Positions 6,150 through 62,332 of a stretch of DNA of 64,000 bases are shown here, piece after piece. The first letter of the stretch is position 1. Every line of letters starts with the position of its first letter. The notes under the pieces were generated by a model. The model searched no databases. It was not told where the DNA came from and was given only the letters and a program-made list of their open reading frames with translations. Both the position numbers and the translations under genes were made by a program. The DNA comes from Escherichia phage 121Q, in sequence record NC_025447.1. The stretch is one strand, 5' to 3'.

Positions 6150-6157
6150 TATAAATA
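6150..6157 (+). promoter_or_regulatory. T4-type late promoter box TATAAATA
   Basis: exact TATAAATA about 18 nt upstream of ATG 6175. Confidence 0.55.
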
Positions 6158-16725: not shown

Positions 16726-16751
16726 GGGTTGACTTCGGTCAGCCCTTTTTG
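16726..16751 (+). terminator. intrinsic terminator, UUCG-loop hairpin
   Basis: GGGTTGACTTCGGTCAGCCC-TTTTT, followed by GCTATAAT. Confidence 0.8.
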
Positions 16752-29233: not shown

Positions 29234-30424
29234 TTACAATTGTCTAGGTGTATCCAGTACATATCTATTTGTAGTAGGACCACCATCATCATATGTTCCG
29301 GTTGAATATATATTTTTCATATCAGCAGTTAGGAAAGTACGATACGAACCGCGATATATTTTTATTTTATCATACATAGAATATGTTATTCCTGACGGCA
29401 ATGGACATGCAGTAAATTTACCAATAGTAACATTAGAACCAACACCCAATGAACCAGCATAGGCACTCGCATTTAAACCAGTTGCATATACACCTGTACT
29501 CGTAATTAGTATACTAGATTGTGTTGGGTATCCAGTATGAATTGAATACAAAGTACCAGGTGGTAGAGTAGTACTGTTATTTCCTAAAACTCCATTAACA
29601 GTGCTAGATGTAGTGTTATTTCCCCATGCTCCATTATTAGCTAACCCACCCACTAGGAACTGACGTGCTCCTGTATTTGGATTTTCAACTAAAGCACTTA
29701 CTGCACCAGTTGAGCATCCTGTGTATTGTAACGTTTTTGTGTATGTTGTATTTGGTTGATATAAAGTATATTCATTATATGAAGTCCATGTAGTCGCGGA
29801 ACTTATACCGGATGTAACACCACCAATATATAAATTATTTTGTTTATCAAACAACAATACACAGTTATTTGTTGACTGTATTTGTGCAATATCAACATTA
29901 GGTGTGACCGCTTTTACAAATGAACCATCGGTTATTTCATAAGTAGTTCCCGTTCCATCGGCGAATTGTCTAGCACTGTTCCACCCTGTACTCCATATTG
30001 TATTATTGTCCATTAAGAAAGTAAACCACGTAGTACCTGCATACATCTGTTTAATTGAAGTACTTGAACTTTGTGTGTACAAATTTTGAATATATTGGTT
30101 ATAACTTAAAAACGTAGTAGTACTAGTTGATAAACCAATATGACTACCATATCCACAGTAATAATAATTTGAGTCATTGTCTTTTACTAATAAAGTTCCT
30201 TGTGTAAGCCAGCAATCGTTAACGTTTTCTCTAATTAATGTCCATGATTTTAATGCAGTGTTGTTTCCTCTACCGAATTTCCCAAAACTATTAGTCCCAC
30301 GTGCATATAGTTGACCATCCGTATACAGAACCACAACATCTAAATCAGTTGGGATTATTTTCTTAATTTTAAGTGGTACTGGGGCAATATTCCCATAATT
30401 CATCATTCTTGCAAAAGGTAACAT
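29234..30424 (-). CDS. RCC1-like repeat (beta-propeller) protein, paralog H
   Basis: leader MLPFARMMNYGNIAP; Gly/Thr/Ser/Asn-rich repeats. Confidence 0.75.
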   Translation of the reverse strand: MLPFARMMNYGNIAPVPLKIKKIIPTDLDVVVLYTDGQLYARGTNSFGKFGRGNNTALKSWTLIRENVNDCWLTQGTLLVKDNDSNYYYCGYGSHIGLSTSTTTFLSYNQYIQNLYTQSSSTSIKQMYAGTTWFTFLMDNNTIWSTGWNSARQFADGTGTTYEITDGSFVKAVTPNVDIAQIQSTNNCVLLFDKQNNLYIGGVTSGISSATTWTSYNEYTLYQPNTTYTKTLQYTGCSTGAVSALVENPNTGARQFLVGGLANNGAWGNNTTSSTVNGVLGNNSTTLPPGTLYSIHTGYPTQSSILITSTGVYATGLNASAYAGSLGVGSNVTIGKFTACPLPSGITYSMYDKIKIYRGSYRTFLTADMKNIYSTGTYDDGGPTTNRYVLDTPRQL

Positions 30425-30495
30425 ATTTCCCTCCTTTATTCATTATACTATATTTAATACAAATAAGAAAGCCAGTACAGTGTACTGGCATTATA
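30425..30495 (-). promoter_or_regulatory. intergenic cassette: terminator hairpin plus promoter-like and SD block
   Basis: GCCAGTACACTGTACTGGC hairpin, conserved block. Confidence 0.55.
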
Positions 30496-31635
30496 TTATT
30501 TCCACGGTAGAAGTGAATCAGGAACCCTTGTTGGTACAGTAGTTGAAGACATTCCAGTAAGATTGGGTACACCACATGTGTATAAATTATTATATTCGTC
30601 AACTAACATCGTATAAGAATAGCTCTTACAAAAACTACTAAGATTACTACCTTCTAATGCAGTAAGATCCATTTCAGCGAATGATGTTATATACATATCA
30701 GTTGTACCAATACCACATTGACCATTTGAATTAAGGCCACATGAAAATAACTTATTATTATTATTAATTATACAGGATGGTCCGGTAAGGTTTGTCCCAA
30801 GCTCACCCACCAACTCCACTTCTCCTTGGAATGATAAATTTGGAATTAATGTACTCATTGGGGCTACTGACCTATTTCCTGTACCTGCTTGTCCATAGTC
30901 GTTAATAGATGCAACTTTAACATTACCATCATTAAGAAATATATAAGAAGTTTCATTTGTATTGACTGCTTTAATTGCATTACTAATCGAAGTATCTTGT
31001 GTAAATGTGAGCAAGTTTTGTGTCGTCGTTCCTGATACAAACGTTCTACCTGCATACCAATATGAACCATCATTTAGTACTAATCCAGTACTATATATTG
31101 CACAACCAGCACTGATAACATTTTCTATTGTACTATAGGTGAATCGTGAAACGCTTGAAGTTGATCCATTCCCAAAAACACCACCAGTACCAGCACCACA
31201 GTAGAACCACTTTCCATTTTTTAAAAATACACGCATACACGAAGATATCACAACACTATCAATATCATCTGCACTGACACCGAAATCAGTAAAGTTCTGT
31301 GTTATATCAACCCAAACGCCGTTAGTGTTTGAAGATAGTATTGGAATAACAGTACGTCTACCAGTGTACCAAATAGTACCATCTTTCTTTATAGCAATTG
31401 TTCCTTGTACCCCACCCCAATATCGTGTAACATTTGAGTTGACAAGAGTCCATTCAGTTGAAGAGTCCAATGAACTATTACCACTTTGTCCATATGCTGA
31501 AGAACCAAACCAATATAGATTGCCATTTGTGTGTAAATAAAATTTGGCATCAGCAGAACATTGTAACCTGTTTTTAGGTAGAATCAGTTCAGGTGCGATA
31601 TTCCCGTACTTAACCATTCTTGCAAAAGGTAACAT
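30496..31635 (-). CDS. RCC1-like repeat (beta-propeller) protein, paralog I
   Basis: start at conserved MLPFARMVKYGNIAP (track ORF reads through the intergenic region); close paralog of K, same C-terminus VPTRVPDSLLPWK. Confidence 0.75.
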   Translation of the reverse strand: MLPFARMVKYGNIAPELILPKNRLQCSADAKFYLHTNGNLYWFGSSAYGQSGNSSLDSSTEWTLVNSNVTRYWGGVQGTIAIKKDGTIWYTGRRTVIPILSSNTNGVWVDITQNFTDFGVSADDIDSVVISSCMRVFLKNGKWFYCGAGTGGVFGNGSTSSVSRFTYSTIENVISAGCAIYSTGLVLNDGSYWYAGRTFVSGTTTQNLLTFTQDTSISNAIKAVNTNETSYIFLNDGNVKVASINDYGQAGTGNRSVAPMSTLIPNLSFQGEVELVGELGTNLTGPSCIINNNNKLFSCGLNSNGQCGIGTTDMYITSFAEMDLTALEGSNLSSFCKSYSYTMLVDEYNNLYTCGVPNLTGMSSTTVPTRVPDSLLPWK

Positions 31636-31705
31636 ATTCCCTCCTTTATTTGTTATACTATATTTAATACAAATAAGAAAGCCAGTACAGTGTACTGGCA
31701 TTATG
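31636..31705 (-). promoter_or_regulatory. intergenic cassette: terminator hairpin plus promoter-like and SD block
   Basis: GCCAGTACACTGTACTGGC hairpin, conserved block. Confidence 0.55.
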
Positions 31706-32815
31706 TTATTTTGGTAAATCAATTTTAGTAAAGACTGCAACATCCTCGATTGCACCTGGAATGGCGTAATACGATCCAGTACTATACACATCTCCATTTT
31801 TGGTTAATATCGATGTCAAACCATCACTAAAAAGAACATCCCTAATCTCACTAACTTCAACGGGTAATTGTAAATTGGTAGCACTATATATAGCACCAGT
31901 TTGAGAATTGTTTAATCCCAAACCACGGTTCGCCCCAACACCCTTCTGATATGTACTAGTAATTACCATTTGTGTAGCAGTATTTAAGGCAGGTGAATTC
32001 GTCATAAACAATGGAGAACTATTAGGCAAAGTACTTACAGGAACTGCACGGAATGTAGTCGTACCTGAACTAAGAAAGTTTGGAGTTTGACCACATACGA
32101 AATATGATGTACCATTATAGTAATTGAATGCATTACCACCAATGGCTGCATCGATTACACCAGAACTACGCAATCCCCAAGTGTTAATTTGTGTTTGGTT
32201 CCCCGTACCATGCTGTCCACTACTATTCCATCCAGAACTATATAGCTTATTATCTAATGTAAGATACATACTATCATTCGCATTGGTCATTACTTTACGA
32301 ACGTTCGTAGCACATTGAGTTAATGTGTAAATTGATGAGGAACCAATACCCAAAGAACCACGATATCCATTATCTCCTGCACCATAGAGTACTGAATTAG
32401 TGCTAAGTACAAATATTAAACCATTTGTACATACAATATTAGCAATTTCACTTACTGGTATAGCATTGGTAAACCAATTAGTCCTTTCAACTAATACAGT
32501 ACTGTAAGAAGTAGTTGTAGAAGATGAGAACCAGTACGTTTGACCTGATGTCCATATCGTATTATCATTTTTAATAATAACAAGTGTACGATCACCCACG
32601 AAAAAATTAGAAACATCTGCACTTACTAATATCCATGAAGATACCGTGTTGGTATTACCATTTCCAGATTCACCACCTTGATTTCTACCTATGTAATATA
32701 AATCATGTGAATCAGTCAATAAGAATTGACCTTGTGTAGAAGCACCAACTTTAATTATATTTTTAGGACCAGGTACAATATTTCCGTACTTAACCATTCT
32801 TGCAAAAGGTAACAT
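31706..32815 (-). CDS. RCC1-like repeat (beta-propeller) protein, paralog J
   Basis: leader MLPFARMVKYGNIVP; GSLGIG and GQHGTG repeats. Confidence 0.75.
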   Translation of the reverse strand: MLPFARMVKYGNIVPGPKNIIKVGASTQGQFLLTDSHDLYYIGRNQGGESGNGNTNTVSSWILVSADVSNFFVGDRTLVIIKNDNTIWTSGQTYWFSSSTTTSYSTVLVERTNWFTNAIPVSEIANIVCTNGLIFVLSTNSVLYGAGDNGYRGSLGIGSSSIYTLTQCATNVRKVMTNANDSMYLTLDNKLYSSGWNSSGQHGTGNQTQINTWGLRSSGVIDAAIGGNAFNYYNGTSYFVCGQTPNFLSSGTTTFRAVPVSTLPNSSPLFMTNSPALNTATQMVITSTYQKGVGANRGLGLNNSQTGAIYSATNLQLPVEVSEIRDVLFSDGLTSILTKNGDVYSTGSYYAIPGAIEDVAVFTKIDLPK

Positions 32816-32889
32816 AATTCCCTCCTTTATTCATTATACTATATTTAATACAAAAAAGAAAAGCCAGTATCAAGTACTGGCATATTACA
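32816..32889 (-). promoter_or_regulatory. intergenic cassette: terminator hairpin plus promoter-like and SD block
   Basis: GCCAGTACTTGATACTGGC hairpin, conserved block. Confidence 0.55.
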
Positions 32890-34032
32890 TTATTTCCACG
32901 GTAGAAGGGAATCGGGGACTCTGGTTGGAACTCTCACGGCTGGAACATTTCCAAGTTCAGCCAAACCACTCATATACAAATTGTTATTTTCATCAATTAT
33001 CATTGAATAGAAATTATCAATTACGAAGCCTGAAATTCGTCTTCCTTCTAATGCATCAAGAACCATTTCGGTGAAAGTTAATATATTTTCGGATGTTTGA
33101 TTAACACCACATGCACCATAGGTATTTCGACCACAAGTATATAACTTATTATTATTTTTAACAACACATCCATTCCCTTCGTTGTTGGATAAACCACCCA
33201 CCAACTCTATTTCACCTTGGAATGATAAATTGGGAATTAATGTACTCATTGGTACTGCTGATACTCTACCTACACCAGCTTGACCATATGCATTTGGTGA
33301 AGCAACCTTCACTGAACCATCATTAAGAAATATATATGAAGTACGGTATGTATTTACAGCTTGTATAGCATTGGTGATCGTATTGTCTTTTGTAAAACTT
33401 AATATATTTGATGTTGTTGTACTACCAGGAGCAACAGTATTTCCTGCATACCAATAGGAACCATCATCAAGAACTAACCCAGTACTGAGCAAAGAACAGC
33501 CATAACTTTTAACATTTTCTATAGTGCTGTATCTGAACGATGTGACATTAGCTGTTGACGCGTTACCAAATACACCACCCTCGCCAGCACCACAGTAGAA
33601 CCATTTTCCATTTTTCAAAAATACACGCAAATTCTGTCCAACAGCAATACCATCAATATCATCAGCACTGACACCAAAATCAGTGAAGTACTGGGTTACA
33701 TCAATCCAAACCCCATTTGTATTTGTTCCGATTTGTGGCATTACTATACTAGCACCTGTGAACCAAATAGTTCCATCATTCTTAATGGCAATGGAACCAA
33801 GAACACCACCCCAGTAACGTTCAATATTATTATTCACACGGGTCCATACGGTGGATGATTGTAATGAACCATTACCACCTTGTCCAAATGAAGATGAACC
33901 ATACCAGTACAAGTCACCATTAACATGCAAATAAAAACGAGTATTATAATTTGCTTGTAATCTATTTTTAAATAGAGGTTTTGGTTCTGGTGCTTCATTT
34001 CCGTACTTAACCATTCTTGCAAAAGGTAACAT
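32890..34032 (-). CDS. RCC1-like repeat (beta-propeller) protein, paralog K
   Basis: leader MLPFARMVKYGNEAP; close paralog of I. Confidence 0.75.
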   Translation of the reverse strand: MLPFARMVKYGNEAPEPKPLFKNRLQANYNTRFYLHVNGDLYWYGSSSFGQGGNGSLQSSTVWTRVNNNIERYWGGVLGSIAIKNDGTIWFTGASIVMPQIGTNTNGVWIDVTQYFTDFGVSADDIDGIAVGQNLRVFLKNGKWFYCGAGEGGVFGNASTANVTSFRYSTIENVKSYGCSLLSTGLVLDDGSYWYAGNTVAPGSTTTSNILSFTKDNTITNAIQAVNTYRTSYIFLNDGSVKVASPNAYGQAGVGRVSAVPMSTLIPNLSFQGEIELVGGLSNNEGNGCVVKNNNKLYTCGRNTYGACGVNQTSENILTFTEMVLDALEGRRISGFVIDNFYSMIIDENNNLYMSGLAELGNVPAVRVPTRVPDSLLPWK

Positions 34033-34106
34033 AATTCCCTCCTTTATTCATTATACTATATTTAATACAAAAAAGAAAAGCCAGTATCAAGTACTGGCAT
34101 ATCAAA
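34033..34106 (-). promoter_or_regulatory. intergenic cassette: terminator hairpin plus promoter-like and SD block
   Basis: GCCAGTACTTGATACTGGC hairpin, GTATTAAATATAGTATAATGAATAAAGGAGG. Confidence 0.55.
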
Positions 34107-35255
34107 TCACTGCAAAAATGACATATCGACTTCGGTATAATTAAGAACGTTCTGTCCAGCAATACCTCCCATTACTACAATTGAAGCCCCACAATAATAT
34201 AACTTCGAAGTGTCAGTAAGTATAAGTGAACCAGATGGGGTGCGTACCAAATTACACGAAGTATTAAACGAAGTATATGAAGGGGTATAAGAGTACTGAT
34301 TAATATTATTACCAACACCTAATTGACCAGACGAGTTGCTTCCAGATGCATAAAGTACTTCATCACCTTTAACTATATGTGACGCCATGTTACCAACACA
34401 AGTATATAAACTATAAACTCCTGAACTCAATAATGTTGGAGTTTTGTATTGTATATCTGTAGATGAAGAAGTACCACCTGTGCCAAATTCGTTCCCGTAT
34501 TGTGCACCGAACTGTTTACCACAAGCGTACAAATTATTATCCGATTTAATAAAAAATGTACTCTGATAACTGACATTACAATCTATAACATCCGAAGAAA
34601 TCATCGTCACCCCAGTAATAGAAGTTTGATTGCCTGTACCTAACTGATAGTAATAGTTAAAACCACAACCCCATAAAGTATTATCTTCTTTTAGGTATAT
34701 GTTACCAACTGCCTTTTTAACCGAAGTTATAGTATCTACCCTTTTGAATGTGTTAAAAGAATTAATGTTTGTACCATCACCAAATGATGATAGGTTAGAG
34801 TTATTGTTAGCTCCACAACAATACAATGTACCATCGTTTGTTATCAAATTTACCTTCATATCATTAAAACTACTCATGTATTTTATATCAGAAACATTAA
34901 TACCACCTGATGTTATCCATGTAGTACAGTCCGTCCACAAAGTTTTTCTATCAGTTACACCAGTGAATGCCTTCGTGTTGCCAGTGATAAAAACTTTTCC
35001 CGTACCTTTCTCTTCGTACAATTGACAATCACTACTGTTATCTTCCAATAGAACTCGTTTAACATTCTCCGCACAAAGAATAAATTTACTCGATGCTACA
35101 CCTGTTCCAGTACCCCAATTCGTCGCAGAAGATGCATACAACTTATCAGTATAAGTATCATGAAGATACATGGAATCACTGGAATATATTTTAAAACGTC
35201 CATCATCACCAGGGGCAATATTCCCGTACTTAACCATTCTTGCAAAAGGTAACAT
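34107..35255 (-). CDS. RCC1-like repeat (beta-propeller) protein, paralog L
   Basis: start at conserved MLPFARMVKYGNIAP; close paralog of F. Confidence 0.75.
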   Translation of the reverse strand: MLPFARMVKYGNIAPGDDGRFKIYSSDSMYLHDTYTDKLYASSATNWGTGTGVASSKFILCAENVKRVLLEDNSSDCQLYEEKGTGKVFITGNTKAFTGVTDRKTLWTDCTTWITSGGINVSDIKYMSSFNDMKVNLITNDGTLYCCGANNNSNLSSFGDGTNINSFNTFKRVDTITSVKKAVGNIYLKEDNTLWGCGFNYYYQLGTGNQTSITGVTMISSDVIDCNVSYQSTFFIKSDNNLYACGKQFGAQYGNEFGTGGTSSSTDIQYKTPTLLSSGVYSLYTCVGNMASHIVKGDEVLYASGSNSSGQLGVGNNINQYSYTPSYTSFNTSCNLVRTPSGSLILTDTSKLYYCGASIVVMGGIAGQNVLNYTEVDMSFLQ

Positions 35256-35303
35256 AATTCCCTCCTTATTCATTATATCATATTTACCCAATAAAGAAAA
35301 CCC

Positions 35304-35332
35304 TTGACATCCTTTCAGTACTGTTGTACTAT
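35304..35332 (+). promoter_or_regulatory. sigma70-like promoter TTGACA-N17-TACTAT for small-gene array
   Basis: TTGACA at 35304, TACTAT at 35327, SD AAGGAG before ATG 35358; sits at divergent junction with minus-strand array. Confidence 0.5.
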
Positions 35333-35357
35333 AGAAGGAATATAAGGAGAACTACAC

Positions 35358-35585
35358 ATGACAAATACTCTTAAGTACTACCTCAATACTCTAAATGAAC
35401 TAGAGTACGGGGAGTTTCTCTCGGATAGTTCGTGGCTAATTGAGCTAAAAAATTATAATAGTCCAGGATGCACCCTTATGATGAACAATGCAATTGATAC
35501 CCTCATTGTGAGTATTTTACACAGCAACATCTGCGGGGATAGCAATAAACAATTATCAAAAATCTTAGTACTGCTATCTATATGA
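35358..35585 (+). CDS. S-array small protein
   Basis: first gene of tandem small-ORF array, SD AAGGAG. Confidence 0.55.
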   Translation: MTNTLKYYLNTLNELEYGEFLSDSSWLIELKNYNSPGCTLMMNNAIDTLIVSILHSNICGDSNKQLSKILVLLSI

Positions 35586-35785
35586 ATATCGAACAGTACT
35601 ACATCGATGCACTACCAACAAAAGGTCTACGAGAAAGCCTACTGTATACACAAAATACTATTATACACTACAAACGTTGTCCTAAACTCCTGAACTCGTA
35701 CAGGAATAATATCATAAGAAATGCTTTACAAGGGGCAGAAAGTATGCAATACTATTATATCCTTGCCCTTTTAATCGAGTACTAA
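35582..35785 (+). CDS. S-array small protein
   Basis: tandem small paralog; C-terminal YYILALLIEY-type tail. Confidence 0.55.
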   Translation: MNIEQYYIDALPTKGLRESLLYTQNTIIHYKRCPKLLNSYRNNIIRNALQGAESMQYYYILALLIEY

Positions 35786-35786
35786 T

Positions 35787-35996
35787 ATGAATACTGAACA
35801 TAAAGAATTCTACACCAAATACCTTAGCAACGAAGAACAATTGTTTCTAAGGAGTGTATCACCTTTAAGTATAGATACACCACACGCCAGAGATTGCTTT
35901 AATAATTGTATACGTAGTACTCTAGAAGCAATCGAATGTAATAACAAAAATATTATGTACTCTGGTTTAATAGGACTAATATATTTCTATGAATAA
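35787..35996 (+). CDS. S-array small protein
   Basis: N-term MNTEHKEFY, C-term LIYFYE; abuts neighbours. Confidence 0.6.
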   Translation: MNTEHKEFYTKYLSNEEQLFLRSVSPLSIDTPHARDCFNNCIRSTLEAIECNNKNIMYSGLIGLIYFYE

Positions 35997-36183
35997 TCAT
36001 AAAGATTTCTATTGTAGTAAACTACCCAAACAAGAACAGCTATCATTCTCTTTAGCACCACCTATGAGAAAGGATAATCTGTATTATAATTACGATTTCA
36101 GGATGGTGACACGTTATGCAATAGAACATACGTTCCCTGCAACTAAGTACCGCTCTATCCTGAACCTCATCTTTAAGTTCTAA
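35989..36183 (+). CDS. S-array small protein
   Basis: N-term MNNHKDFY; start overlaps upstream stop. Confidence 0.6.
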   Translation: MNNHKDFYCSKLPKQEQLSFSLAPPMRKDNLYYNYDFRMVTRYAIEHTFPATKYRSILNLIFKF

Positions 36184-36235
36184 AAGGTACACCAGGGACC
36201 GAGTACTTTAATATAGTAAGGCTAATTACATTATA

Positions 36236-36421
36236 ATGAATCATATAAGCTACTACTACCAACAACTATCCGACAGAGACAAGTACAGTCACAACTCCCA
36301 TGTGTGGTACTACAAACGCGGCAGTATAAGAGACAAACAACATTACTTCTGTATTTCTATTAAAGAAGCACTAACAACTAAGTACACGTACCGAGCAGTA
36401 CTTAAACTTATTGAAATGTAA
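36236..36421 (+). CDS. S-array small protein
   Basis: 61-aa tandem paralog, C-term VLKLIEM. Confidence 0.55.
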   Translation: MNHISYYYQQLSDRDKYSHNSHVWYYKRGSIRDKQHYFCISIKEALTTKYTYRAVLKLIEM

Positions 36422-36429
36422 GGAAGAAA

Positions 36430-36612
36430 ATGAATATAGAATTCTATTTAACTAAACTACAACACGCCGAAAGATTCAACTTCAATAAGTTCAATATTTT
36501 CTACAATTGCGGGAACAAAAAAGATAAACACACCTTCCTATATGTCGTCACAAGAGATGCACAAAACGAAAAGTACACATACAGAGAAGTAATGAAACTA
36601 ATCGCTATTTAA
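36430..36612 (+). CDS. S-array small protein
   Basis: SD AAGGAAG; C-term VMKLIAI. Confidence 0.55.
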   Translation: MNIEFYLTKLQHAERFNFNKFNIFYNCGNKKDKHTFLYVVTRDAQNEKYTYREVMKLIAI

Positions 36613-36620
36613 GGAATACT

Positions 36621-36800
36621 ATGCAACAATTCTATATAGAACGTATAACCATAAAAGACCGTTTCATGTACGACACCTTCGTTGATTACTACAACCTAGG
36701 AACAAAAAGTACTAAAAATATTAATCTCAATAGCTGCATTTATGCTGTACTAACACAAGATAATCCCTACAGGGAAATCCTCGCACTGGCATCTATATAA
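36621..36800 (+). CDS. S-array small protein (59 aa)
   Basis: not in ORF track; ATG 36621 with SD AAGGAA; fills array gap. Confidence 0.5.
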   Translation: MQQFYIERITIKDRFMYDTFVDYYNLGTKSTKNINLNSCIYAVLTQDNPYREILALASI

Positions 36801-36810
36801 AGGAAACCAA

Positions 36811-37482
36811 ATGAAACTTAATGCACACAGCAAACAATACCTTAAGCACTTTAAGTACCTCAATAGTATTCAGGCAGAATCCGTTACATCTGCATATACG
36901 TATCACCCGAATGTACTAAAGAAACGAAATAAAAAGGAAAAATCCAGTACAAATGGAGTTAACGTATCAAAGAACCTTGAATTGTACATGAAGAAAAATA
37001 ATATAGCTGTTCATTATATGAATATCTATAATACTGATTTAAAAGTATTGAGTACTAATACGAGCACGAAGGTACTAAAGAACGCATCCTTCATCATCAA
37101 TATGCAGTTGGATAATACCCCGTGCACTTTAATGCTATACTTCGGGAATACATACTTCTTCGGGAATTGTAACACCTCCCACGATGTCAATACAGCACAA
37201 TTCCAAATGGGTGGCATATACTCTACTGATGCAGAAAAAGTACACGAGAATATGCACTTCTGGCAAGCACAACGTACAGAAGAAACTAAATCAATTGTAG
37301 ATTTCCTCAAAGAACTAGAACACAAAGAACTACAGGAAGAAGAACTATTCATGTACAGTACTGTAATCGATAATCCAGTACTCTATAAAAACGCGTACAA
37401 TCTGACAAAACATGTACAGGAAATTATCAGTACTAATAAGAAAATGCATCACCTCATTACGTATATTACAAACTATGTATAA
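36811..37482 (+). CDS. hypothetical protein embedded in S array (223 aa)
   Basis: SD AAGGAAA; larger ORF unlike neighbours. Confidence 0.6.
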   Translation: MKLNAHSKQYLKHFKYLNSIQAESVTSAYTYHPNVLKKRNKKEKSSTNGVNVSKNLELYMKKNNIAVHYMNIYNTDLKVLSTNTSTKVLKNASFIINMQLDNTPCTLMLYFGNTYFFGNCNTSHDVNTAQFQMGGIYSTDAEKVHENMHFWQAQRTEETKSIVDFLKELEHKELQEEELFMYSTVIDNPVLYKNAYNLTKHVQEIISTNKKMHHLITYITNYV

Positions 37483-37657
37483 AGAATACTATATCTCTAA
37501 ACTACCCGTGCAGCAAAAATACTTTGCTGCATACAAAGTTCTTCTCATAACTCGTGCCGCTCGATCTAACTACATGAATAGCGTAAAACGTGCTATAGAA
37601 AATGATGACGCAATGAACCAGTACTATAACATTTTACTACTAATATATAAGTACTAA
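37475..37657 (+). CDS. S-array small protein
   Basis: start MYKEYY at 37475 overlapping upstream stop; C-term LLLIYKY. Confidence 0.6.
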   Translation: MYKEYYISKLPVQQKYFAAYKVLLITRAARSNYMNSVKRAIENDDAMNQYYNILLLIYKY

Positions 37658-37667
37658 AGAGAACAAC

Positions 37668-37850
37668 ATGCACAAAGAATACTACAGGGATAAAATACCT
37701 ATGCATCTCCAGCACCATATACCAACAGAACCAATAGGAATAAAAGATCACGCAAAGATAATGTTCCAACAATGTACTAAGTACACGCTCATATACGATG
37801 ATAATCCATATATGCTGTACTACGTAGTAATGCTAACATTCAGGTACTAA
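37668..37850 (+). CDS. S-array small protein
   Basis: MHKEYY...MLTFRY. Confidence 0.6.
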   Translation: MHKEYYRDKIPMHLQHHIPTEPIGIKDHAKIMFQQCTKYTLIYDDNPYMLYYVVMLTFRY

Positions 37851-37851
37851 T

Positions 37852-38043
37852 ATGAATAACCACAAAGAATACTACATAGAGAAACTCCCAATGTATCTCC
37901 AACACCTTGTACCAACAGAACCATTGGGTATAGAAAAAAACTACGAAAAAGACTACTTCATTCAGTGCACTAAATCCTCGATATATATTGAAGACTATAA
38001 TCGAGTACTGTATCACATCCTTTTACTAATATATAAGTACTAA
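37852..38043 (+). CDS. S-array small protein
   Basis: MNNHKEYY...LLLIYKY; 1 nt from upstream stop. Confidence 0.6.
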   Translation: MNNHKEYYIEKLPMYLQHLVPTEPLGIEKNYEKDYFIQCTKSSIYIEDYNRVLYHILLLIYKY

Positions 38044-38044
38044 T

Positions 38045-38227
38045 ATGCACAAAGAATACTACACACAATTTCTCCCCAGCATTTTTGAACACTACGCCAG
38101 ATATAAAGTCCCTCTGGATAACGATTTGGCAGTACTGGGATTCAATAACTGCATAGAACGAAGTATAGAAAATAGTAGTAGTTATGACCAGCTATATAAC
38201 ACTATCCTACTTATATTCAGGTACTAA
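38045..38227 (+). CDS. S-array small protein
   Basis: MHKEYY...ILLIFRY. Confidence 0.6.
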   Translation: MHKEYYTQFLPSIFEHYARYKVPLDNDLAVLGFNNCIERSIENSSSYDQLYNTILLIFRY

Positions 38228-38228
38228 C

Positions 38229-38417
38229 ATGCATAAAGAATACTACACAAAATATTTCCCAATGTACCTCAGAACTAATCTATTAGATAAACCTCGCGGT
38301 ATCAATGCACAAAATGATAAAGTGTATTTTACTATGTGCACTAAAGCATGTATACTAGATTTTGACAGCTACCATCGAGTACTGTATCATACCCTGTACC
38401 TAGCTTTCGTATTCTAA
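38229..38417 (+). CDS. S-array small protein
   Basis: start MHKEYY at 38229 (track start 38184 is internal to upstream gene). Confidence 0.6.
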   Translation: MHKEYYTKYFPMYLRTNLLDKPRGINAQNDKVYFTMCTKACILDFDSYHRVLYHTLYLAFVF

Positions 38418-38426
38418 GAGAACAAT

Positions 38427-38612
38427 ATGCATAAAGAATTCTACTTAAGCCATCTGGATCTAAACTCCCAAATGCTTATACCACTAATCCCAATAGATAT
38501 CAAGGATAAGAAAAATACCGAACAATTCATTTACCATACACAGTGTGCGATCACCCCAAATTACATTCCATATGAATTGTACTACATTCTCGCCCTAATA
38601 TATAGGTACTAA
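38427..38612 (+). CDS. S-array small protein
   Basis: MHKEFY...LALIYRY. Confidence 0.6.
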   Translation: MHKEFYLSHLDLNSQMLIPLIPIDIKDKKNTEQFIYHTQCAITPNYIPYELYYILALIYRY

Positions 38613-38613
38613 T

Positions 38614-38799
38614 ATGCATAGAGAATACTACACACAATTTGTTAAAGGGAACTACAAACATGCCGTACCCAGAACCCCTTTAAATTCTCATGACCCAAGT
38701 ACTATATTCTTGTTTAATGACGCAATACGTACAGTACTCAATACTAAAGATGAAGATGTGCAGTACGTATTCTTACTATTACTTATATACAGACACTAA
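38614..38799 (+). CDS. S-array small protein
   Basis: MHREYY...LLLIYRH. Confidence 0.6.
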   Translation: MHREYYTQFVKGNYKHAVPRTPLNSHDPSTIFLFNDAIRTVLNTKDEDVQYVFLLLLIYRH

Positions 38800-38804
38800 C
38801 TAAT

Positions 38805-38987
38805 ATGAATAAAGAACATAAAGAATTCTATATAAGAAAACTAACATTCGTCCCCGTAAGAATATATAAAGAATGCGACCCAAGATTATACCTATGGCAC
38901 TTCAATGAGTGCATAAAAGATTCTATATACCCTAAGAACTATAAAGAACAATTGTGCTCAGTACTAACACTAGTACTATCATATTAA
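38805..38987 (+). CDS. S-array small protein
   Basis: MNKEHKEFY...LVLSY. Confidence 0.6.
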   Translation: MNKEHKEFYIRKLTFVPVRIYKECDPRLYLWHFNECIKDSIYPKNYKEQLCSVLTLVLSY

Positions 38988-39002
38988 TTAATAGAGAATA
39001 CT

Positions 39003-39194
39003 ATGTATAAAAACTTCTATATAAGTAAACTAAAAGAAAATGAACAAGTATGGATTAGATCTATAATTCCACTGGCATTTAATAGATATGCATTTAACAG
39101 ATGTACCGAGATTGCTATAGACCCTTATAATATTAAAGAGAATGTACAGTATAATCAGTACTACTATATCTTAATGCTTATATATAGGAAGTAA
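39003..39194 (+). CDS. S-array small protein
   Basis: MYKNFY...LMLIYRK; last array member. Confidence 0.6.
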   Translation: MYKNFYISKLKENEQVWIRSIIPLAFNRYAFNRCTEIAIDPYNIKENVQYNQYYYILMLIYRK

Positions 39195-39307
39195 TTAAAC
39201 ACAAGTAGACAGGGGAAGCTCCTAGTGAACAACCTTTATGTACAGGCGAATTGTTAAAATTCAGCCTGGACAAATGCGATCACTAGGATTCTCCCCAGGC
39301 TAAACCC

Positions 39308-39400
39308 CGTAATCATAGGTAGTCATAAGTAATCATATATAAACATTTAAGTAATCATTTATAATCACTGTAGTGATCAGTAGTGATCAGTAGTGAGTAC
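39308..39400. repeat. GTAATCA repeat cluster plus three tandem TAGTGATCAG units
   Basis: GTAATCA-like heptamer about five times in 60 bp, then TAGTGATCAG x3 (GATC-containing); more GTAATCA copies at 39520-39560. Confidence 0.6.
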
Positions 39401-40229
39401 TAGAGTACAGGAATGTTCACGTTTAATCAAGAACGTAGCAGTACTGATATGCCACTAAGTAGGCAGAGGAAGTCTGCCGTACTTTGTAGTTTCCAAGCTC
39501 CTTTTCCATTTTGCAAATTACATCAAATGTAATCAAAAGTAATCACGCAATGATTAGTACTGAATTATTACTTTCACCTTAATTTCAATTACCCCTTTAC
39601 CCTTCGGGGTAAAATTCAATTACCCCTTGAGGCTCCAGCAAAAAGTTGGTTAGTACTCCATCCTAAATCTCGATCCTAAAAATTTTGGAGTACCTATGAA
39701 ATAAAAGTTGGATCTTCGAAAGTTGAAATTTACGTTGGGACATATAGGATTTGTGGGATATAATGAGTTTTGTAGCGATACAGATTATACGATTTCAGTA
39801 CTGAATAATGAAAGAAAGCTATTGACATTATGATTCAGTACTGTATAATGTTCTACATAGAGAGATGAGTTGCTGCGAACAATTCATTTACTCTACCTCC
39901 TGTCGTGAGACAGTACAGAAAAGATAGTTCCTCCTGTGGTGGTACATCTTTTTGAACCTCATATGAAAATCGTAATAACAGTACTGATATTAACAGAATG
40001 GTGTCAGTACTGATTTTAATCTAAAGCATTATGCCACCAGCTTGTGCTGGTGGATTCCCTCTAACAGTATTCAGTACTACATGATAGTCTTCATCCTCCT
40101 ACAGTAACAGTGAGGGCTATTGTGGCAGTACTGAATACTCCCTTTCAAAAGATAGATCTATGGTATAGTACTGACGGATTTTGGGCGTAGTAACCCTAGG
40201 TTGAATTTAGACGTAGAGATGTCTAGACC

Positions 40230-40362
40230 TCCAGATGGCTGGAAGTAAAGATGGCTATCCCTCTAGGCGGCTGGATGGCTAGATTTCTAGATGGCTGTAC
40301 TGCTAGACGTTTGGACGGCTAAACGGCTAGATGGTTACACGTCTGGATGTATAGACGGCTAA
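40230..40362. repeat. iteron-like array of about 9 short direct repeats (CTAGATGGCT / GGACGGCT units)
   Basis: (A/G)GA(T/C)GGCT recurs about 9 times in 130 bp, immediately followed by an AT-rich tract (40363-40392). Confidence 0.6.
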
Positions 40363-40545
40363 ATCAAAATTTTTATTTTATTTTTTCCAATAGTTCCCCT
40401 ACCGCGTGGGGATGGTTTCCCCGCAGTATCTGGAGTTAGATTTTTCTGAATCTGGAATCATTATCCCCGTTTTCGCCTGGTATGTCAACCGTCTGGATGA
40501 ATAATTTTAAAAAATAATCTAGTACTGAATTTTGGGCGTAACTAT

Positions 40546-40558
40546 GCACCCGGTGGGC
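40546..40558 (-). repeat. dispersed CTAGCCCACNGGGTGC element copy (reverse orientation)
   Basis: GCACCCGGTGGGC followed by TAG. Confidence 0.5.
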
Positions 40559-41076
40559 TAGAGTCTTTCTCGACTTGATAAAAATATTATAGCAGTACTG
40601 AATTATAAAAGCAATAGCCTGGATGTAAAAAGTTTTAATTAATTTGCTTGTCATCCTGGGGCGTACTATGGTACTATGATTCAGTACTGAGAAAGTGCTA
40701 TGACCTGCTAAGGTGCGGGAGTGTATCCTTTTTAAATTTACTGAATTTTGGGCGTAATTCCGCACCCCCTGGGGTATCCGCTTTCTCGCGTCTATGTAGT
40801 AATTATACGCTTTTTTAGTACTGAGTCAATAGCTAAAAACAAAATAATTGAAAATAATTTAACGCGTTTAAACGGCCCGTAAAGCCCTGGTTAGCTGGTG
40901 GCGGTGCAAATGTATAGCTTAGGTGTATTAATGCGTTAGAATGCGATTGAGGACGTTTTACGGGGTATAGTACTGATTCAGTACTGAATAGTAGTACTGA
41001 AAGATTGTTCTCCCTGGATTGTTCCAGTACTCCTATATAGAAAGAAAACTATTTTAAAAGTATTTGTAGAAAGTAC

Positions 41077-41104
41077 TTGCAAAGTATTGGGAAAGGTGTA
41101 GAAT
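41077..41104 (+). promoter_or_regulatory. sigma70-like early promoter TTGCAA-N16-TAGAAT plus stem-loop
   Basis: AAGTACTTGCAAA -35 block, TAGAAT -10, GTTTTACATC, then ACGGGGGAAACGCTCCCGT hairpin. Confidence 0.55.
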
Positions 41105-41160
41105 GTTTTACATCGAGACGGGGGAAACGCTCCCGTTGCACTTTAAAAGAGATTAAAACG

Positions 41161-41523
41161 ATGGCGACTCAAATCAATACTATCATGCTTAACCTGGTTT
41201 CTTTCCGTGAAGAGATGAAAGATCTTCCCGCTGAGACTGTACGGATTCACATTGCAGCTTATCGGGAATTGATTGCAATGCTGCCGCTTAAGCGTGAACA
41301 GTATGCCGCTACTGCTATGCTCGATGCAATGATCCATAAGATGATCCAGACTGATTTAACGATGGCTTATCAGTACATGGGCGAAATGTTTGCAGTGTAT
41401 AGCAAGCCAGTACCAGGAATGGAAAGTACAGAAGTATTGCACGGCTTAAACTTAAAACAAGATGCATGGGATAATATGCCTCGTTTCCTGGTATGGGCTG
41501 ACAGTGGCAAGATTTACGAATAA
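41161..41523 (+). CDS. hypothetical protein
   Basis: start MATQINTIM after promoter/stem-loop (track ORF starts 41077 inside the promoter). Confidence 0.55.
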   Translation: MATQINTIMLNLVSFREEMKDLPAETVRIHIAAYRELIAMLPLKREQYAATAMLDAMIHKMIQTDLTMAYQYMGEMFAVYSKPVPGMESTEVLHGLNLKQDAWDNMPRFLVWADSGKIYE

Positions 41524-41537
41524 GTTTAATAAAGTAC

Positions 41538-41565
41538 TTGCAAACTAAGTTTAAAAGCGTATAAT
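41538..41565 (+). promoter_or_regulatory. sigma70-like early promoter TTGCAA-N16-TATAAT plus stem-loop
   Basis: TTGCAA 41538, TATAAT 41560, GGGGAATAGTTCCCC hairpin, SD AAGAGGA. Confidence 0.6.
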
Positions 41566-41617
41566 GTTTTATATCAGGTGGGGAATAGTTCCCCACTATA
41601 ATAAAGAGGATTTAAAA

Positions 41618-41857
41618 ATGGCTAAATCAAAAATGTTCTTAGGACACAAAAACAAAACTCATTGGAATGTTTCCTTATGGATTAATAATGACGAATCATT
41701 ATACCGGTTGGCCCAGGACTTTATTGCCGCTAACACTAATCGTAATGATGCGGCCCGTCATATGATGCTATTTTTAGAACAGACTGGACAAGATAAAACT
41801 CCAGACGGCTTTAAGTATAGCACTACTGCGATCCGTGCGGCGATGGTTGGAATGTAA
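41618..41857 (+). CDS. hypothetical protein
   Basis: ATG 41618 after SD AGAGGA. Confidence 0.6.
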   Translation: MAKSKMFLGHKNKTHWNVSLWINNDESLYRLAQDFIAANTNRNDAARHMMLFLEQTGQDKTPDGFKYSTTAIRAAMVGM

Positions 41858-41940
41858 GAGAATAGATTAAAAGTACTATTGCACGGTGATAGTACTTTAT
41901 AATAAAGTTCTTTTTGTACAACAACGATAGGGGTAACAGC

Positions 41941-42207
41941 ATGACTATTACATATTTTGCAACGCGTGAACTTGCTCGGATTGCCGCACGCCAGGACGGG
42001 GCGACGTTTAAAGATATGGGCGTACAATCTGAACGTGGTAAACGTTGGGCCGTAGTAAAGCAAAGTACAGCCCGATCAATTCAGTACTGGCGAGCGGCTT
42101 TAAAGCGTCCTGATAGTGTATCGCGTCGCGTGGTAGAAATAAAGCACGACCGCAAGGGCAATCGCGTTACCGTGTACCGTACTAAAAAGATTGCAGTACT
42201 TGAATAA
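41941..42207 (+). CDS. hypothetical protein, paralog of 53998 gene
   Basis: FATRELARIAARQDGATFKDMG..RWAV and HDRKGNRVTVY blocks shared with 53998-54393 protein. Confidence 0.6.
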   Translation: MTITYFATRELARIAARQDGATFKDMGVQSERGKRWAVVKQSTARSIQYWRAALKRPDSVSRRVVEIKHDRKGNRVTVYRTKKIAVLE

Positions 42208-42214
42208 AAAGTAC

Positions 42215-42242
42215 TTGCAAACTATGTTTAATGGCGTATAAT
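42215..42242 (+). promoter_or_regulatory. sigma70-like early promoter TTGCAA-N16-TATAAT plus stem-loop
   Basis: TTGCAA 42215, TATAAT 42237, GCGGGAACACTTCCCGC hairpin, SD GGAG. Confidence 0.6.
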
Positions 42243-42294
42243 GTTTTACATCGAGAGCGGGAACACTTCCCGCCTATAACCTGGAGTAATAAAA

Positions 42295-42525
42295 ATGACT
42301 AATATGTATATGACTGAAGTTAAAACCGTAAAAGATACTACCACGAATAAAACTACTTACTTACAGCGGATCTGCGGTGTATGGCAACGTATCAGCAAAT
42401 CAAAGTACTTTAAATTAACATCATATGCCAATCGTTCGGATTCATTCAGTACTGAAATAAAAGGTAATAAAGTACACCAATACGGCACTTATTATTATTA
42501 TAGCCTGGACGCGATTGCAGTATAA
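42295..42525 (+). CDS. hypothetical protein
   Basis: 76-aa ORF after promoter/stem-loop/SD. Confidence 0.55.
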   Translation: MTNMYMTEVKTVKDTTTNKTTYLQRICGVWQRISKSKYFKLTSYANRSDSFSTEIKGNKVHQYGTYYYYSLDAIAV

Positions 42526-59705: not shown

Positions 59706-59735
59706 ATGATTGATATTATTTTCAAGGGAGTCCCT

Positions 59736-59933
59736 ATGCGTATTTTAACTCAAGCAGAACACCACGAAAGACTTATCAATAACATGGCTATGATAATGTA
59801 TAAGTCACATGAACGTGGTATTGCCTATAAGCGTGAATTAATTATGGCACTATTCATTGGAACTAACTTTCAGGAAAGGTATGTCAAGGATTGGATTTGG
59901 TATTTAATTGAAGATGTAACGAGTAAACTATGA
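59736..59933 (+). CDS. T-array small protein
   Basis: start MRILTQAEHH with SD AGGGAG (track start 59706 lies in the promoter); FIGTNFQERYV motif. Confidence 0.6.
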   Translation: MRILTQAEHHERLINNMAMIMYKSHERGIAYKRELIMALFIGTNFQERYVKDWIWYLIEDVTSKL

Positions 59934-60130
59934 AAATGCGTAAATTAACCGAAAAAGAATATCAAGCACTGTTACGTAAAAACTTCACAAAGATTTATAA
60001 TACAGACTCACACGTAGAACGAATGGAGTTATACCTTTTGATTACATTGGGAACTAACTATCAGGATGCATGGGTAACGAAATATGTGGATACATTGAAA
60101 AATGAAATTTTGTCCACGAGGAAACAATGA
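59930..60130 (+). CDS. T-array small protein
   Basis: LGTNYQDAWV motif; ATGA overlap with neighbour. Confidence 0.6.
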   Translation: MKMRKLTEKEYQALLRKNFTKIYNTDSHVERMELYLLITLGTNYQDAWVTKYVDTLKNEILSTRKQ

Positions 60131-60183
60131 AAACTATAACACGAACCCAATCATTCGGACTTATCTTGTAATACATGGACTTA

Positions 60184-60336
60184 ATGGTGGATATCAGCAA
60201 AGACCTGCCTAAAACTGCAATTGAAGTTGCAAGAGCAGAGATCCGCATGTTGGCTGTACTGAACACAAACCATCAGGAAGAGTATGTTGACGATTGGATT
60301 CGATTTTTAATAGAAGATATTAAGAGTAAACTATGA
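60184..60336 (+). CDS. T-array member, truncated or disrupted
   Basis: 50-aa ORF with LNTNHQEEYV motif; a 14-aa stub ORF (60127-60171) precedes it. Confidence 0.4.
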   Translation: MVDISKDLPKTAIEVARAEIRMLAVLNTNHQEEYVDDWIRFLIEDIKSKL

Positions 60337-60545
60337 TTATATTAACACCTGAAGAATATAAGAAACGTTTTAAATCTGTCCAGGCTGAAATATTACTTAT
60401 ATACCTTTCAAATGCAGATCTTAACTTATCAAGGGTAATGGAGAAGGATTTACTTATGGGTGCATTTTTGGATACAGACTTTCAGGAGTATTATGTAGGG
60501 GAATACTTTATTGCACTTCAGAACCACATTAAGAGTAAACTATGA
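60333..60545 (+). CDS. T-array small protein
   Basis: LDTDFQEYYV motif; C-term IKSKL. Confidence 0.6.
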   Translation: MIILTPEEYKKRFKSVQAEILLIYLSNADLNLSRVMEKDLLMGAFLDTDFQEYYVGEYFIALQNHIKSKL

Positions 60546-60757
60546 TTATTCTAGAAAAATCATATCAATATACTGAACGCATCGCTGCCAGACAACTTGA
60601 AATCCTCATAATATACGAAGATACTTCTGATTTAAACTTAGCTGAGGTATTGGAAAATGAAATACTTTTGGGTGCATTCTTGGGAACAGACTATCAGGAG
60701 TATTATGAGGAAAAGTATTTGTCATCTCTTGAGAAATACATCAGGAGCAAATTATGA
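60542..60757 (+). CDS. T-array small protein
   Basis: LGTDYQEYY motif; C-term IRSKL. Confidence 0.6.
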   Translation: MIILEKSYQYTERIAARQLEILIIYEDTSDLNLAEVLENEILLGAFLGTDYQEYYEEKYLSSLEKYIRSKL

Positions 60758-60990
60758 AAGTCATTACTGACTTTGAATATAAGGCTCGCTCAGTGAGTGC
60801 AGCGAAGAAAGAGAACACCATCTACCTCACGATGCAAGACATAGAATGGGATAAAATTGAAGAGATGGTTGCTGAAGTATGGCTTGACGCGTTCATGGAT
60901 ACACAGTATCAAAATACGTTCATAGGTAAGTATCTAAATGTTATTATGAAGCACATAGAAAGGAAATCAGCAAATGCGTCACTTAAATGA
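60754..60990 (+). CDS. T-array small protein
   Basis: MDTQYQNTF motif. Confidence 0.6.
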   Translation: MKVITDFEYKARSVSAAKKENTIYLTMQDIEWDKIEEMVAEVWLDAFMDTQYQNTFIGKYLNVIMKHIERKSANASLK

Positions 60991-62331: not shown

Positions 62332-62332
62332 C

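Follow-up and report, generated by a model that had tools for sequence, protein, structure and literature searches.

A lineage-specific tandem multigene family of small proteins in a hypervariable, putatively early region of jumbo phage 121Q

Gene content, family membership and predicted fold

We analysed a stretch of 64,000 nucleotides (nt) from the genome of Escherichia phage 121Q (sequence record NC_025447.1; complete genome 348,532 bp), referred to here as the window, and concentrated on an array of small genes that occupies its plus strand at 35358-39194 and that we call the S array. The locus is an uncharacterised, virus lineage-specific tandem multigene family in a hypervariable and putatively early region. 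An earlier note, made from the letters of this DNA, had listed 17 tandem open reading frames (ORFs) here, S01 to S17, and all of them are present. They are the annotated 121Q genes PBI_121Q_249-265, each named "hypothetical protein": S01, S08, S09 and S11 match the deposited proteins PBI_121Q_249, _256, _257 and _259, respectively, and the annotation notes of phage G17 are consistent with the 17 ORFs corresponding one by one to genes 249-265. The sizes of 59-81 amino acids (aa) given in the note for the small ORFs required correction, because the ORFs of 81 and 77 aa had been over-extended: S09 in fact starts at 37475 (MYKEYY; its 60 aa agree exactly with PBI_121Q_257 as deposited) and S13 at 38229 (MHKEYY, 62 aa), so that members of the family measure 59-69 aa and S01 75 aa.

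The array opens with S01 (35358-35585), the operon leader gene, which encodes an acidic protein with an isoelectric point (pI) of 4.7, has just a KYY..L motif at the N-terminus in common with the family and is absent from a divergent related locus, L010. The ATG of S02 (35582-35785, 67 aa), a divergent family member, overlaps the S01 stop codon (ATGA). Two core members follow, S03 (35787-35996, 69 aa) across a TAATATG junction and S04 (35989-36183, 64 aa) with an 8-nt overlap, and then, past a 52-nt gap (36184-36235), a subgroup B made up of S05 (36236-36421, 61 aa), S06 (36430-36612, 60 aa) and S07 (36621-36800, 59 aa), the last two with their own Shine-Dalgarno sequences (AAGGAAG and AAGGAA). 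Next comes S08 (36811-37482, 223 aa), which is present in one copy and always at this position in all the arrays examined, divergent metagenomic arrays included. The remainder consists of core members: S09 (37475-37657), which overlaps the S08 stop by 8 nt, S10 (37668-37850, 60 aa), S11 (37852-38043, 63 aa), S12 (38045-38227, 60 aa; TAATATG junction), S13 (38229-38417; TAACATG junction), S14 (38427-38612, 61 aa), S15 (38614-38799, 61 aa), S16 (38805-38987, 60 aa) and the last gene of the array, S17 (PBI_121Q_265; 39003-39194, 63 aa).

Apart from the gap between S04 and S05, intergenic spacing runs from -8 to +15 nt, a wider range than the 0-10 nt given in the note, whose stop/start overlaps were borne out. 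Eight of the 16 junctions are such overlaps or 1-nt TAATATG/TAACATG junctions, and most of the others carry an AAGGA or AGAG Shine-Dalgarno sequence of their own; together, these features give the layout of a translationally coupled operon. Upstream lies a sigma-70-type promoter (35304-35332, plus strand), found by consensus scan and direct reading, with TTGACA at 35304-35309, a 17-nt spacer containing CAGTACTG and TACTAT at 35327-35332, a 10/12 match to the consensus. Its hexamers are kept in all nine relatives (the -10 hexamer reads TACAAT in UE-S1), as is the GGAG core of the Shine-Dalgarno sequence of S01 (AAGGAG at 35344-35349, 8 nt before the ATG; TAGGAG in UE-S1). No terminator-like site was found within 35358-39194, and the first terminator-like hairpin in the scan after the array, at 39459-39478 on the plus strand, is weak and has no clean T-run. 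A single terminator-free polycistronic operon of 17 genes behind the 35304 promoter is well supported, and so is the note's view of the locus as a lineage-specific expansion of one small-protein family, in conserved frames, behind this promoter.

All-versus-all BLASTP and a profile hidden Markov model (HMM) of the core group placed 15 of the 17 ORFs in one family, composed of 11 core members (S03, S04 and S09-S17; E = 1e-17 to 1e-28), the subgroup S05-S07 (mutual E-values 1e-5 to 1e-11; 4e-11 between S05 and S06) and S02. Matches to the HMM include S03 (E = 4.5e-25), S04 (8.8e-24), S10 (2e-26), S11 (5e-28), S14, S15, S16 (1.7e-17) and S17 (1.3e-21). Profile-profile comparison with hhalign, which used homologs from 13 related loci, joined the subgroup to the core at 94% (E = 1.3e-7, 54 columns) and S02 at 92.9% (E = 3.7e-7, 56 columns), in both cases over the full length. 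Membership of S01 was unsupported (1.2%), and S08 is unrelated to the small ORFs, as the note had said; the idea that its C-terminus is a fused family domain was ruled out by the same comparison (0.1%). The single family claimed in the note therefore holds, at a supported count of 15 paralogs instead of about 16. The motifs it had described in the core group are likewise real at the N-terminus (M-H/N/Y-K-E-Y/F-Y) and at the C-terminus (L-L-I-Y-R/K-Y), but the central Cys is found in 73 of 137 sequences only; this residue, C39, is the sole semi-conserved position among the 0-3 Cys of each member. Paralogs are 25-50% identical to one another and 26-48% to S11, the highest value being that of S10, and nearest paralogs tend to sit close together (S10-S11, S11-S13, S09-S12, S05-S06-S07).

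The objection that the note itself had raised, namely that the periodicity might reflect a DNA repeat without conserved reading frames, was checked. Tandem Repeats Finder returned no repeat of ~190 nt, so a DNA-level tandem repeat was rejected as the source and the periodicity reflects conserved reading frames; inter-cassette DNA similarity is confined to 45-63 nt around each gene junction. The array pattern greatly exceeds what chance would produce. A six-frame HMM scan of the 64-kb window revealed no further copy of the family, the next best match having E = 0.15 or weaker. Toward the window end, at 59706-63907 on the plus strand, lies a second array, in which at least 16 small paralogs of 53-90 aa share the motif LGTNYQE-x-YV; its kinship with the S family was rejected (hhalign 0.9%).

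Scans of Pfam, NCBIfam and PADLOC gave nothing meaningful, with sub-threshold noise for S06 and S08 only. The core group corresponds to PHROG 11711 and S08 to PHROG 29152 (E = 5e-156), both of which carry the PHROG function label "unknown". Seven core members tested, S15 among the core genes with such a match, hit PHROG 11711 at E = 6.5e-9 to 1.2e-27 over profile positions 1-62 of 62 (S03, 2e-13; S17, 7e-24), and S02 and S06, which had no match in the PHROG scan, are linked only by hhalign, at 93-94%. The note's statement that no family is recognised was thus nearly right: it is correct for Pfam, NCBIfam and PADLOC but not for PHROG. A sequence search of the PDB with the family profile and with S08 yielded nothing (best, Nsp1 at E = 0.36), and no paper that we found analyses the S family.

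The array region matches 34 records of Asteriusvirus jumbo coliphages (PBECO4, slurp01, G17, phAPEC6 and others) at 80-98% identity with patchy coverage. A profile search of 5.8 billion proteins gave 68 family clusters, all of 41-98 aa, and the long contigs that carry the family are all ~320-380 kb and Asteriusvirus-like; the most divergent members sit on metagenomic contigs with the same type of array and an embedded S08 homolog of ~223 aa. S08 itself forms 22 clusters, all of Asteriusvirus type. An exhaustive HMM search of 1.84 billion representatives produced 31 matches, one of which, a 531-aa protein with seven matching stretches (P0086), was dismissed as a spurious low-complexity repeat. 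In IMG/VR there were no S08 relatives, and 62 matches to the N-terminal DNA motif, which have no HMM support, are due to chance. In these searches the family is confined to Asteriusvirus-type jumbo phages. Many identical or near-identical copies of S01 and S08 have been entered in databases as Escherichia coli proteins and lie on contigs of ~343-359 kb in bacterial assemblies. Whole Asteriusvirus genomes thus seem often to be carried along when E. coli isolates are sequenced, be it through a carrier state, pseudolysogeny or contamination.

An AlphaFold2 model of S11, built from a 67-sequence family alignment, is compact and all-helical, with a predicted local distance difference test score (pLDDT) of 91.5, a predicted template modelling score of 0.75 and helices at residues 3-9, 14-17, 30-45 and 49-62; the model of S08 was poor (pLDDT 45.6). 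Entropy over 137 distinct family sequences is low almost exclusively at hydrophobic core positions (Y7, Y8, L12, F36, C39, T/I40, I44, Y/L53, I56, L57, L59 and I60; Y8 is invariant), and near-maximal entropy is found at residues 14-35 and at intervening or exposed helix positions. Core residues and fold are kept even at 20-30% identity. The family is a conserved scaffold bearing a diversified surface. Foldseek searches with the S11 model gave a best E of 4.6 against the PDB and only the family's own members in BFVD; the fold, as modelled, is without a relative in the structure libraries searched.

The 15 members are hydrophilic overall, with grand averages of hydropathy (GRAVY) of -0.10 to -0.82 and 7-17% Tyr, and on the basis of the negative GRAVY the S proteins are soluble. 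No transmembrane segment and no signal peptide or lipobox was recognised from GRAVY, sequence and model, no dedicated transmembrane predictor having been run. The hydrophobic C-terminal segment (Y-x-I-L-L-L-I-Y) could be taken for the anchor of small membrane proteins, or of proteins for lysis, such as holins and spanins, or for superinfection exclusion. However, the hydrophobic run spans only ~8-10 residues and falls inside helix 49-62 of the compact bundle, a predicted amphipathic core helix, GRAVY is negative in every member, and the MHKEYY N-terminus is not signal peptide-like; we regard this explanation as excluded.

Charge, in turn, bears on another reading, in which the S proteins bind nucleic acids, as small regulators or architectural proteins, and tune transcription, maybe by recognising the CAGTACTG palindrome or a promoter class. 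They are helical and ~60 aa long, and several are basic (pI 9.0-9.6 in S04, S05, S06, S09, S13 and S17); AGTACT is in 12-fold excess in the genome and lies in promoter spacers, and the expansion described in phage G offers an interpretive precedent (PMC7824862). Yet pI ranges from 5.2 to 9.6 across the family, with no conserved charge and a net charge of zero or below in six of the 15 members, and conservation falls on hydrophobic residues of the core and not on a basic surface. Pfam and NCBIfam showed no helix-turn-helix, zinc ribbon or other DNA-binding signature, nor did the PDB contain a fold match to DNA-binding proteins. We consider such a role unlikely.

Cassette turnover and selection

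We mapped the array genes in 10 isolate genomes (121Q and nine relatives) and two metagenomic loci, with orthogroups defined at ≥70% identity, and obtained 51 orthogroups (48 S-type and three S08-type), of which 17 are represented in 121Q. Gene order is collinear, and cassettes can be traced as orthologs at 80-100% identity across isolates, whose loci hold 15-23 genes, or 13-21 family members when the S01- and S08-types are set aside. Eight orthogroups (S03, S04, S05, S07, S08, S13, S15 and S17) occur in all ten isolates, S06 in four only and S09 in two only.

Differences in content resolve into discrete events at cassette boundaries. The S15/S16 junction (38780-38830) is a recombination site, as seen in overlapping BLAST segments, the sequences themselves, the orthogroup map and a repeat family (D9). 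Two additional cassettes, x33 and x30, are present at this point in PBECO4, slurp01, JP4 and SD-15, between direct repeats of ~50 nt that share an exact core of 26 nt, ATGAATAAAGAACATAAAGAATTCTA, encoding MNKEHKEF; BF17 carries x33 without x30. BLAST breakpoints, sequences and the orthogroup map identify the 52 nt that separate S04 from S05 as what is left of the 3' end of a further cassette, x15; this cassette is intact in G17, slurp01, A4 and BF17, and its deletion in 121Q joined an 8-of-9-nt microhomology (CTAAAAGGT / CTACAAGGT). In PBECO4, S09 and S10 are replaced by a single cassette, with both breakpoints inside the conserved N-terminal codons. Among identical residues, use of the same codon exceeds the expectation from codon usage at the cassette ends (0.67 versus 0.54, and 0.49 versus 0.37) and is near expectation in the cassette middle (0.48 versus 0.46).

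Compared with 121Q, locus L010 is 85.9% identical in nucleotides over 2.3 kb downstream of the array and 79% in the promoter region (85% in locus L011), and its ~4-kb array is nearly unalignable, with three patches only at 70-73%. The proteins of the L010 array are 20-59% identical to those of 121Q, and S08 40%. The array is thus a hypervariable island between conserved flanks. An origin by repeated tandem duplication followed by divergence is supported, with turnover through unequal recombination at cassette ends and microhomologies, and it is likewise supported that the diversity of the array comes mainly from gain, loss and replacement of cassettes by recombination, to which an elevated ratio of nonsynonymous to synonymous substitution rates (dN/dS) between close orthologs contributes little.

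We calculated dN/dS for the genes of the window against their orthologs in nine phages. Pooled over the family, the ratio is 0.34 (357 differences at 4,013 synonymous sites and 529 at 16,750 nonsynonymous sites). Individual values lie at 0.09-0.58 for 12 of the 15 family genes and are likewise below 1 for S01 (0.39-0.45) and S08 (0.41-0.60), and S09, with a single identical ortholog, is uninformative. Only S04 (1.57) and S11 (1.23) exceed 1, on 4-5 synonymous changes and non-independent comparisons. Wherever they are retained in 12 related loci, the ORFs are intact and length-conserved, free of frameshifts and stops, with the x15 remnant in the window as the exception. These ratios, the intact ORFs and the AlphaFold model show that the S genes are coding, and they are maintained by purifying selection. 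The note had suggested diversifying selection. What stands of this is the unusual evolution of the locus, in that phages with 80-98% identity differ in the cassettes they carry and the protein core is conserved while the surface varies; diversifying selection in the classical sense, that is, positive selection between close orthologs, is unsupported by the pooled ratio.

Selection also bears on the possibility that the array is dispensable ballast, in which duplications lengthened the genome to fit an enlarged T=28 capsid, as in the ratchet of Hua et al., and the copies are drifting. Tandem duplication has been put forward as a route of jumbo-genome expansion, with mention of a tandem array in 121Q (Hua et al. 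2017, PMC5646251). The S genes are, moreover, less constrained than most of their neighbours, for which control values are mostly 0.09-0.19 as against 0.34, and cassettes are frequently lost. Drifting copies would nevertheless be hard to reconcile with a dN/dS clearly below 1 over several hundred differences, with the lack of frameshifts and stops in the copies retained in 12 loci, or with core residues and a confidently modelled fold that persist at 20-30% identity. The promoter, Shine-Dalgarno sequences and coupling junctions are maintained as well, and the same architecture, S08 included, is kept in divergent relatives. We therefore rate ballast as distinctly unlikely.

Expression signals and candidate function

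The 35304 promoter is one of 14 sites in the window, against 0.01 expected, of a phage-specific promoter class TTGACA-N7-9-(C/T)AGTACTG-TATAAT, in which the AGTACTG element lies directly upstream of the -10 hexamer (925, 11510, 35304, 39822, 42728 on the minus strand, 46462, 49492, 50084, 51886, 53132, 53491, 56348, 57992 and 58309). Thirteen of the sites are on the plus strand, and ten fall in 39-59 kb, a region with few ORFs of ≥150 aa. In the related phage CBB, RpoD-like promoters cluster 5' of short hypothetical ORFs that are suspected to be early host-takeover genes (PMC5259590), and PA5oct, likewise a relative, which depends on the host RNA polymerase, transcribes blocks of small uncharacterised genes early (PMC7318152). 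From the promoter type and by analogy with these two phages, we infer that the S array would be expressed early. The T4-type late motif TATAAATA occurs at two sites in the window (5502 and 6150), neither near the array nor near the RCC1-like genes described below, and does not discriminate timing; with two sites against 13.7 expected the motif is depleted, and the one at 6150 lies just upstream of a 503-aa ORF at 6175. We found no Asteriusvirus transcriptome in the literature searched.

The virion proteome of phAPEC6 comprises 62 proteins and includes the RCC1-like gp549 and gp551 and a gp315c of 4.66 kDa (PMC7247149). The listed part of its table passes directly from gp347 to gp549 and gp551, and the S ortholog gp542c is not among its entries; as far as that list extends, the lack of S proteins in the virion of a relative points to a non-structural role.

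Upstream of the S array and divergent to it, the minus strand carries a tandem array of 14 paralogous ORFs at 21089-35291 (12 of 250-430 aa and two fragments of ~70 aa), which in relatives are annotated as RCC1-like 'regulator of chromosome condensation / DNA condensation'; two orthologs are in the phAPEC6 virion, and content varies between phages.

The two arrays stand head-to-head at 35291/35358, with 14 RCC1-like ORFs, fragments included, facing 15 S genes, and both vary in content between phages. The S proteins might accordingly be chaperones, assembly factors or specificity adaptors of the adjacent 11-14 RCC1-like virion proteins, approximately one for each paralog, and the presence of gp549 and gp551 in the phAPEC6 virion fits this picture. 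The S promoter is, however, of the host type, as in early small-gene clusters, whereas virion proteins are normally late; the S proteins do not appear in the listed part of the virion proteome, and in G17 the RCC1-like genes are split by their own terminators, which indicates independent regulation. A partnership of this kind strikes us as very unlikely. The nucleic-acid-binding, ballast and RCC1-partner explanations are all less well supported than the one we favour.

That explanation, to which we give an even chance of being right, sees in the array a multigene family that is driven by recombination and expressed early and whose products are non-structural binding proteins with a part in host takeover or counter-defence. 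The S proteins would be made early and remain in the infected cell instead of entering the virion, and they would form a repertoire of small binding modules in which a shared hydrophobic scaffold presents differing loops and surfaces. Each would probably bind or inhibit a different host factor, or a variant of one, with host takeover or counter-defence as the most plausible purpose, and the differing sets carried by phage strains may match the hosts that they encounter. The note's "panel of inhibitors of host or defence targets" is a candidate role compatible with all of the findings.

A more specific form of this proposal, which we put forward tentatively and think somewhat improbable as a whole, is a cassette-exchange repertoire. 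The conserved cassette ends span ~45-60 nt, from the codons for C-terminal LLIYKY across the stop/start junction to those for N-terminal MHKEYY, and would act at once as protein core, coupling signals and recombination handles. Through these handles co-infecting Asteriusvirus phages could swap, duplicate or delete single genes of ~190 nt, and their populations would come to hold a library of ~50 or more surface-diversified variants of a small helical fold not described before, each neutralising a different host defence or a different variant of a host factor. Among phages, such a repertoire would correspond to the variable multigene families known from giant viruses of eukaryotes.

Several observations weigh against the host-takeover or counter-defence reading. 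Seven S orthogroups are universal among the ten isolates, which makes part of the array core-like and not a strain-specific accessory. Orthologs are under purifying, not positive, selection at short divergence, and a dN/dS two to three times that of most neighbours could just mean weak constraint. Searches of PADLOC, Pfam, NCBIfam, PDB and BFVD linked the S proteins neither by sequence nor by fold to any protein known to act in anti-defence, host takeover or regulation, nor did the locus hold an aca-like helix-turn-helix regulator of the kind sought at anti-CRISPR and other anti-defence loci. The promoter call is a test of consensus and conservation, and a single consensus promoter is no proof of early expression. 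Finally, virion mass spectrometry easily misses small proteins, and the virion data are those of a relative.

Known systems offer partial parallels. Gene accordions, such as the amplifications of K3L in poxviruses, resemble the S array in copy content that varies between close strains and, where a small gene of 60-85 aa in an early region is concerned, in the head-to-tail arrangement of its copies. The closest precedent in mechanism is phage T4, in which the 85-aa early anti-ToxN gene tifA (dmd-tifA versus toxIN) is amplified in tandem via microhomologies of 6-10 bp (PMC9391042), and in T6 amplification of anti-defence loci is driven by SegB (PMC13096335). The breakpoints in the S array, by comparison, are the ~50-nt repeat with its 26-nt core and the 8-of-9-nt microhomology. 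The S array has tandem copies bounded by short homologies but not near-identical, unstable ones: accordion copies are identical, recent and unstable, whereas S copies are old, diverged (25-50% identity) and kept as orthologs under purifying selection. tifA is, moreover, an anti-defence gene, whereas counter-defence is a candidate role of the S proteins. The S array is what a fixed, diversified accordion would look like, not an active one.

As a phenomenon, the S array comes nearest to lineage-specific expansions in other jumbo phages and to the multigene families of large eukaryotic DNA viruses. Among jumbo phages, Bacillus phage G has a lineage-specific expansion of a zinc-ribbon family in ~35 copies (PMC7824862), and an array of '>30 very similar genes' has been noted for 121Q and G (Hua et al. 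2017, PMC5646251). The latter is more likely the array at 59706-63907 than the S array. These expansions are likewise large tandem families of small-protein paralogs unique to one jumbo-phage lineage and read as products of tandem duplication, but the zinc ribbon of phage G needs two CxxC-type Cys pairs, whereas the S family is all-helical, has no zinc ribbon and at most one semi-conserved Cys.

Outside phages, the multigene families (MGFs) 100, 110, 300, 360 and 505 of African swine fever virus are tandem paralogs whose copy number and content vary between strains by recombination and which are linked to host range and immune evasion. The S array shares with these and similar families of large eukaryotic DNA viruses a strain-variable set of tandem paralogs that arises from recombination, but the MGF proteins are much larger, unrelated and from another virus realm, and the link to host range, demonstrated there, is hypothesised for the S array. 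A further parallel is found in early modules of small ORFs for host takeover, such as gp37-gp60 of SPO1 and the 'hyperplastic' early regions of T4. In CBB the predicted early region is CBB_390-546 (PMC5259590). Like the S array, these modules hold clusters of very small, uncharacterised genes with non-structural products behind host sigma-70-type promoters and vary between relatives; a promoter of this type, by consensus and conservation, was found at the S array. The genes of such modules are mostly unrelated, whereas 15 of the 17 genes of the S array are paralogs of one fold.

Jumbo phages consist mostly of genes of unknown function, and small early genes have been a recurrent source of host-takeover and anti-defence proteins. 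The S array is a tractable case in a culturable E. coli phage, with 15 versions of one modelled fold and at least 48 natural S variants, and its recombination footprints show a route by which a repertoire is reshuffled. If the S proteins prove to be inhibitors, they would constitute a ready-made natural library for mapping determinants of specificity and would illustrate how a 'gene accordion' in a phage looks once fixed and diversified; should they yield no phenotype, the locus would be evidence on the growth of jumbo genomes by duplication.

Other features of the window

Directly 3' of the S array, no convincing ORFs were seen over ~2 kb (39195-41160). Within this stretch lie short tandem repeats with periods of 10-22 (39309-39396), a perfect sigma-70 consensus promoter on the plus strand (39822-39849), three 11-of-12 promoters on the minus strand (40460-40829) and hairpins based on CAGTACTG (39979-40012 and 40977-41001). 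The region coincides with the minimum of cumulative GC skew near 40 kb and is 86% identical even in L010, whose S array is unalignable; an Rfam search of 35000-42500 gave no match. This stretch may house a non-coding RNA, act as a regulatory hub or contain a replication origin.

In the window we counted 271 copies of the palindrome AGTACT where 21.6 ± 4.0 would be expected, a ~12.5-fold excess; its extended form is CAGTACTG, and GTACTG/CAGTAC is enriched 12.7-fold. Examples lie at 35317-35322, 39980-40011 and 40969-40998. Within long ORFs it is found in all three frames (33, 19 and 11 sites), and its density is highest at 39195-41900, where genes are few (8.5 per kb), and in the S array (6 per kb), with a low of ~0.7 per kb in the array at 59.7-63.9 kb that is still ~2x chance. 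Such an excess is unusual for a phage and suggests a genome-wide function at the DNA level, for example as a site bound by a protein, as a target of modification or as part of promoters or hairpins. The choice of Tyr codons is inverted in the S array, where TAC accounts for 62% (69/111) compared to 36% (148/413) in long ORFs; the inversion may be connected with the enrichment of GTAC/AGTACT, or it may mark a distinct expression class.

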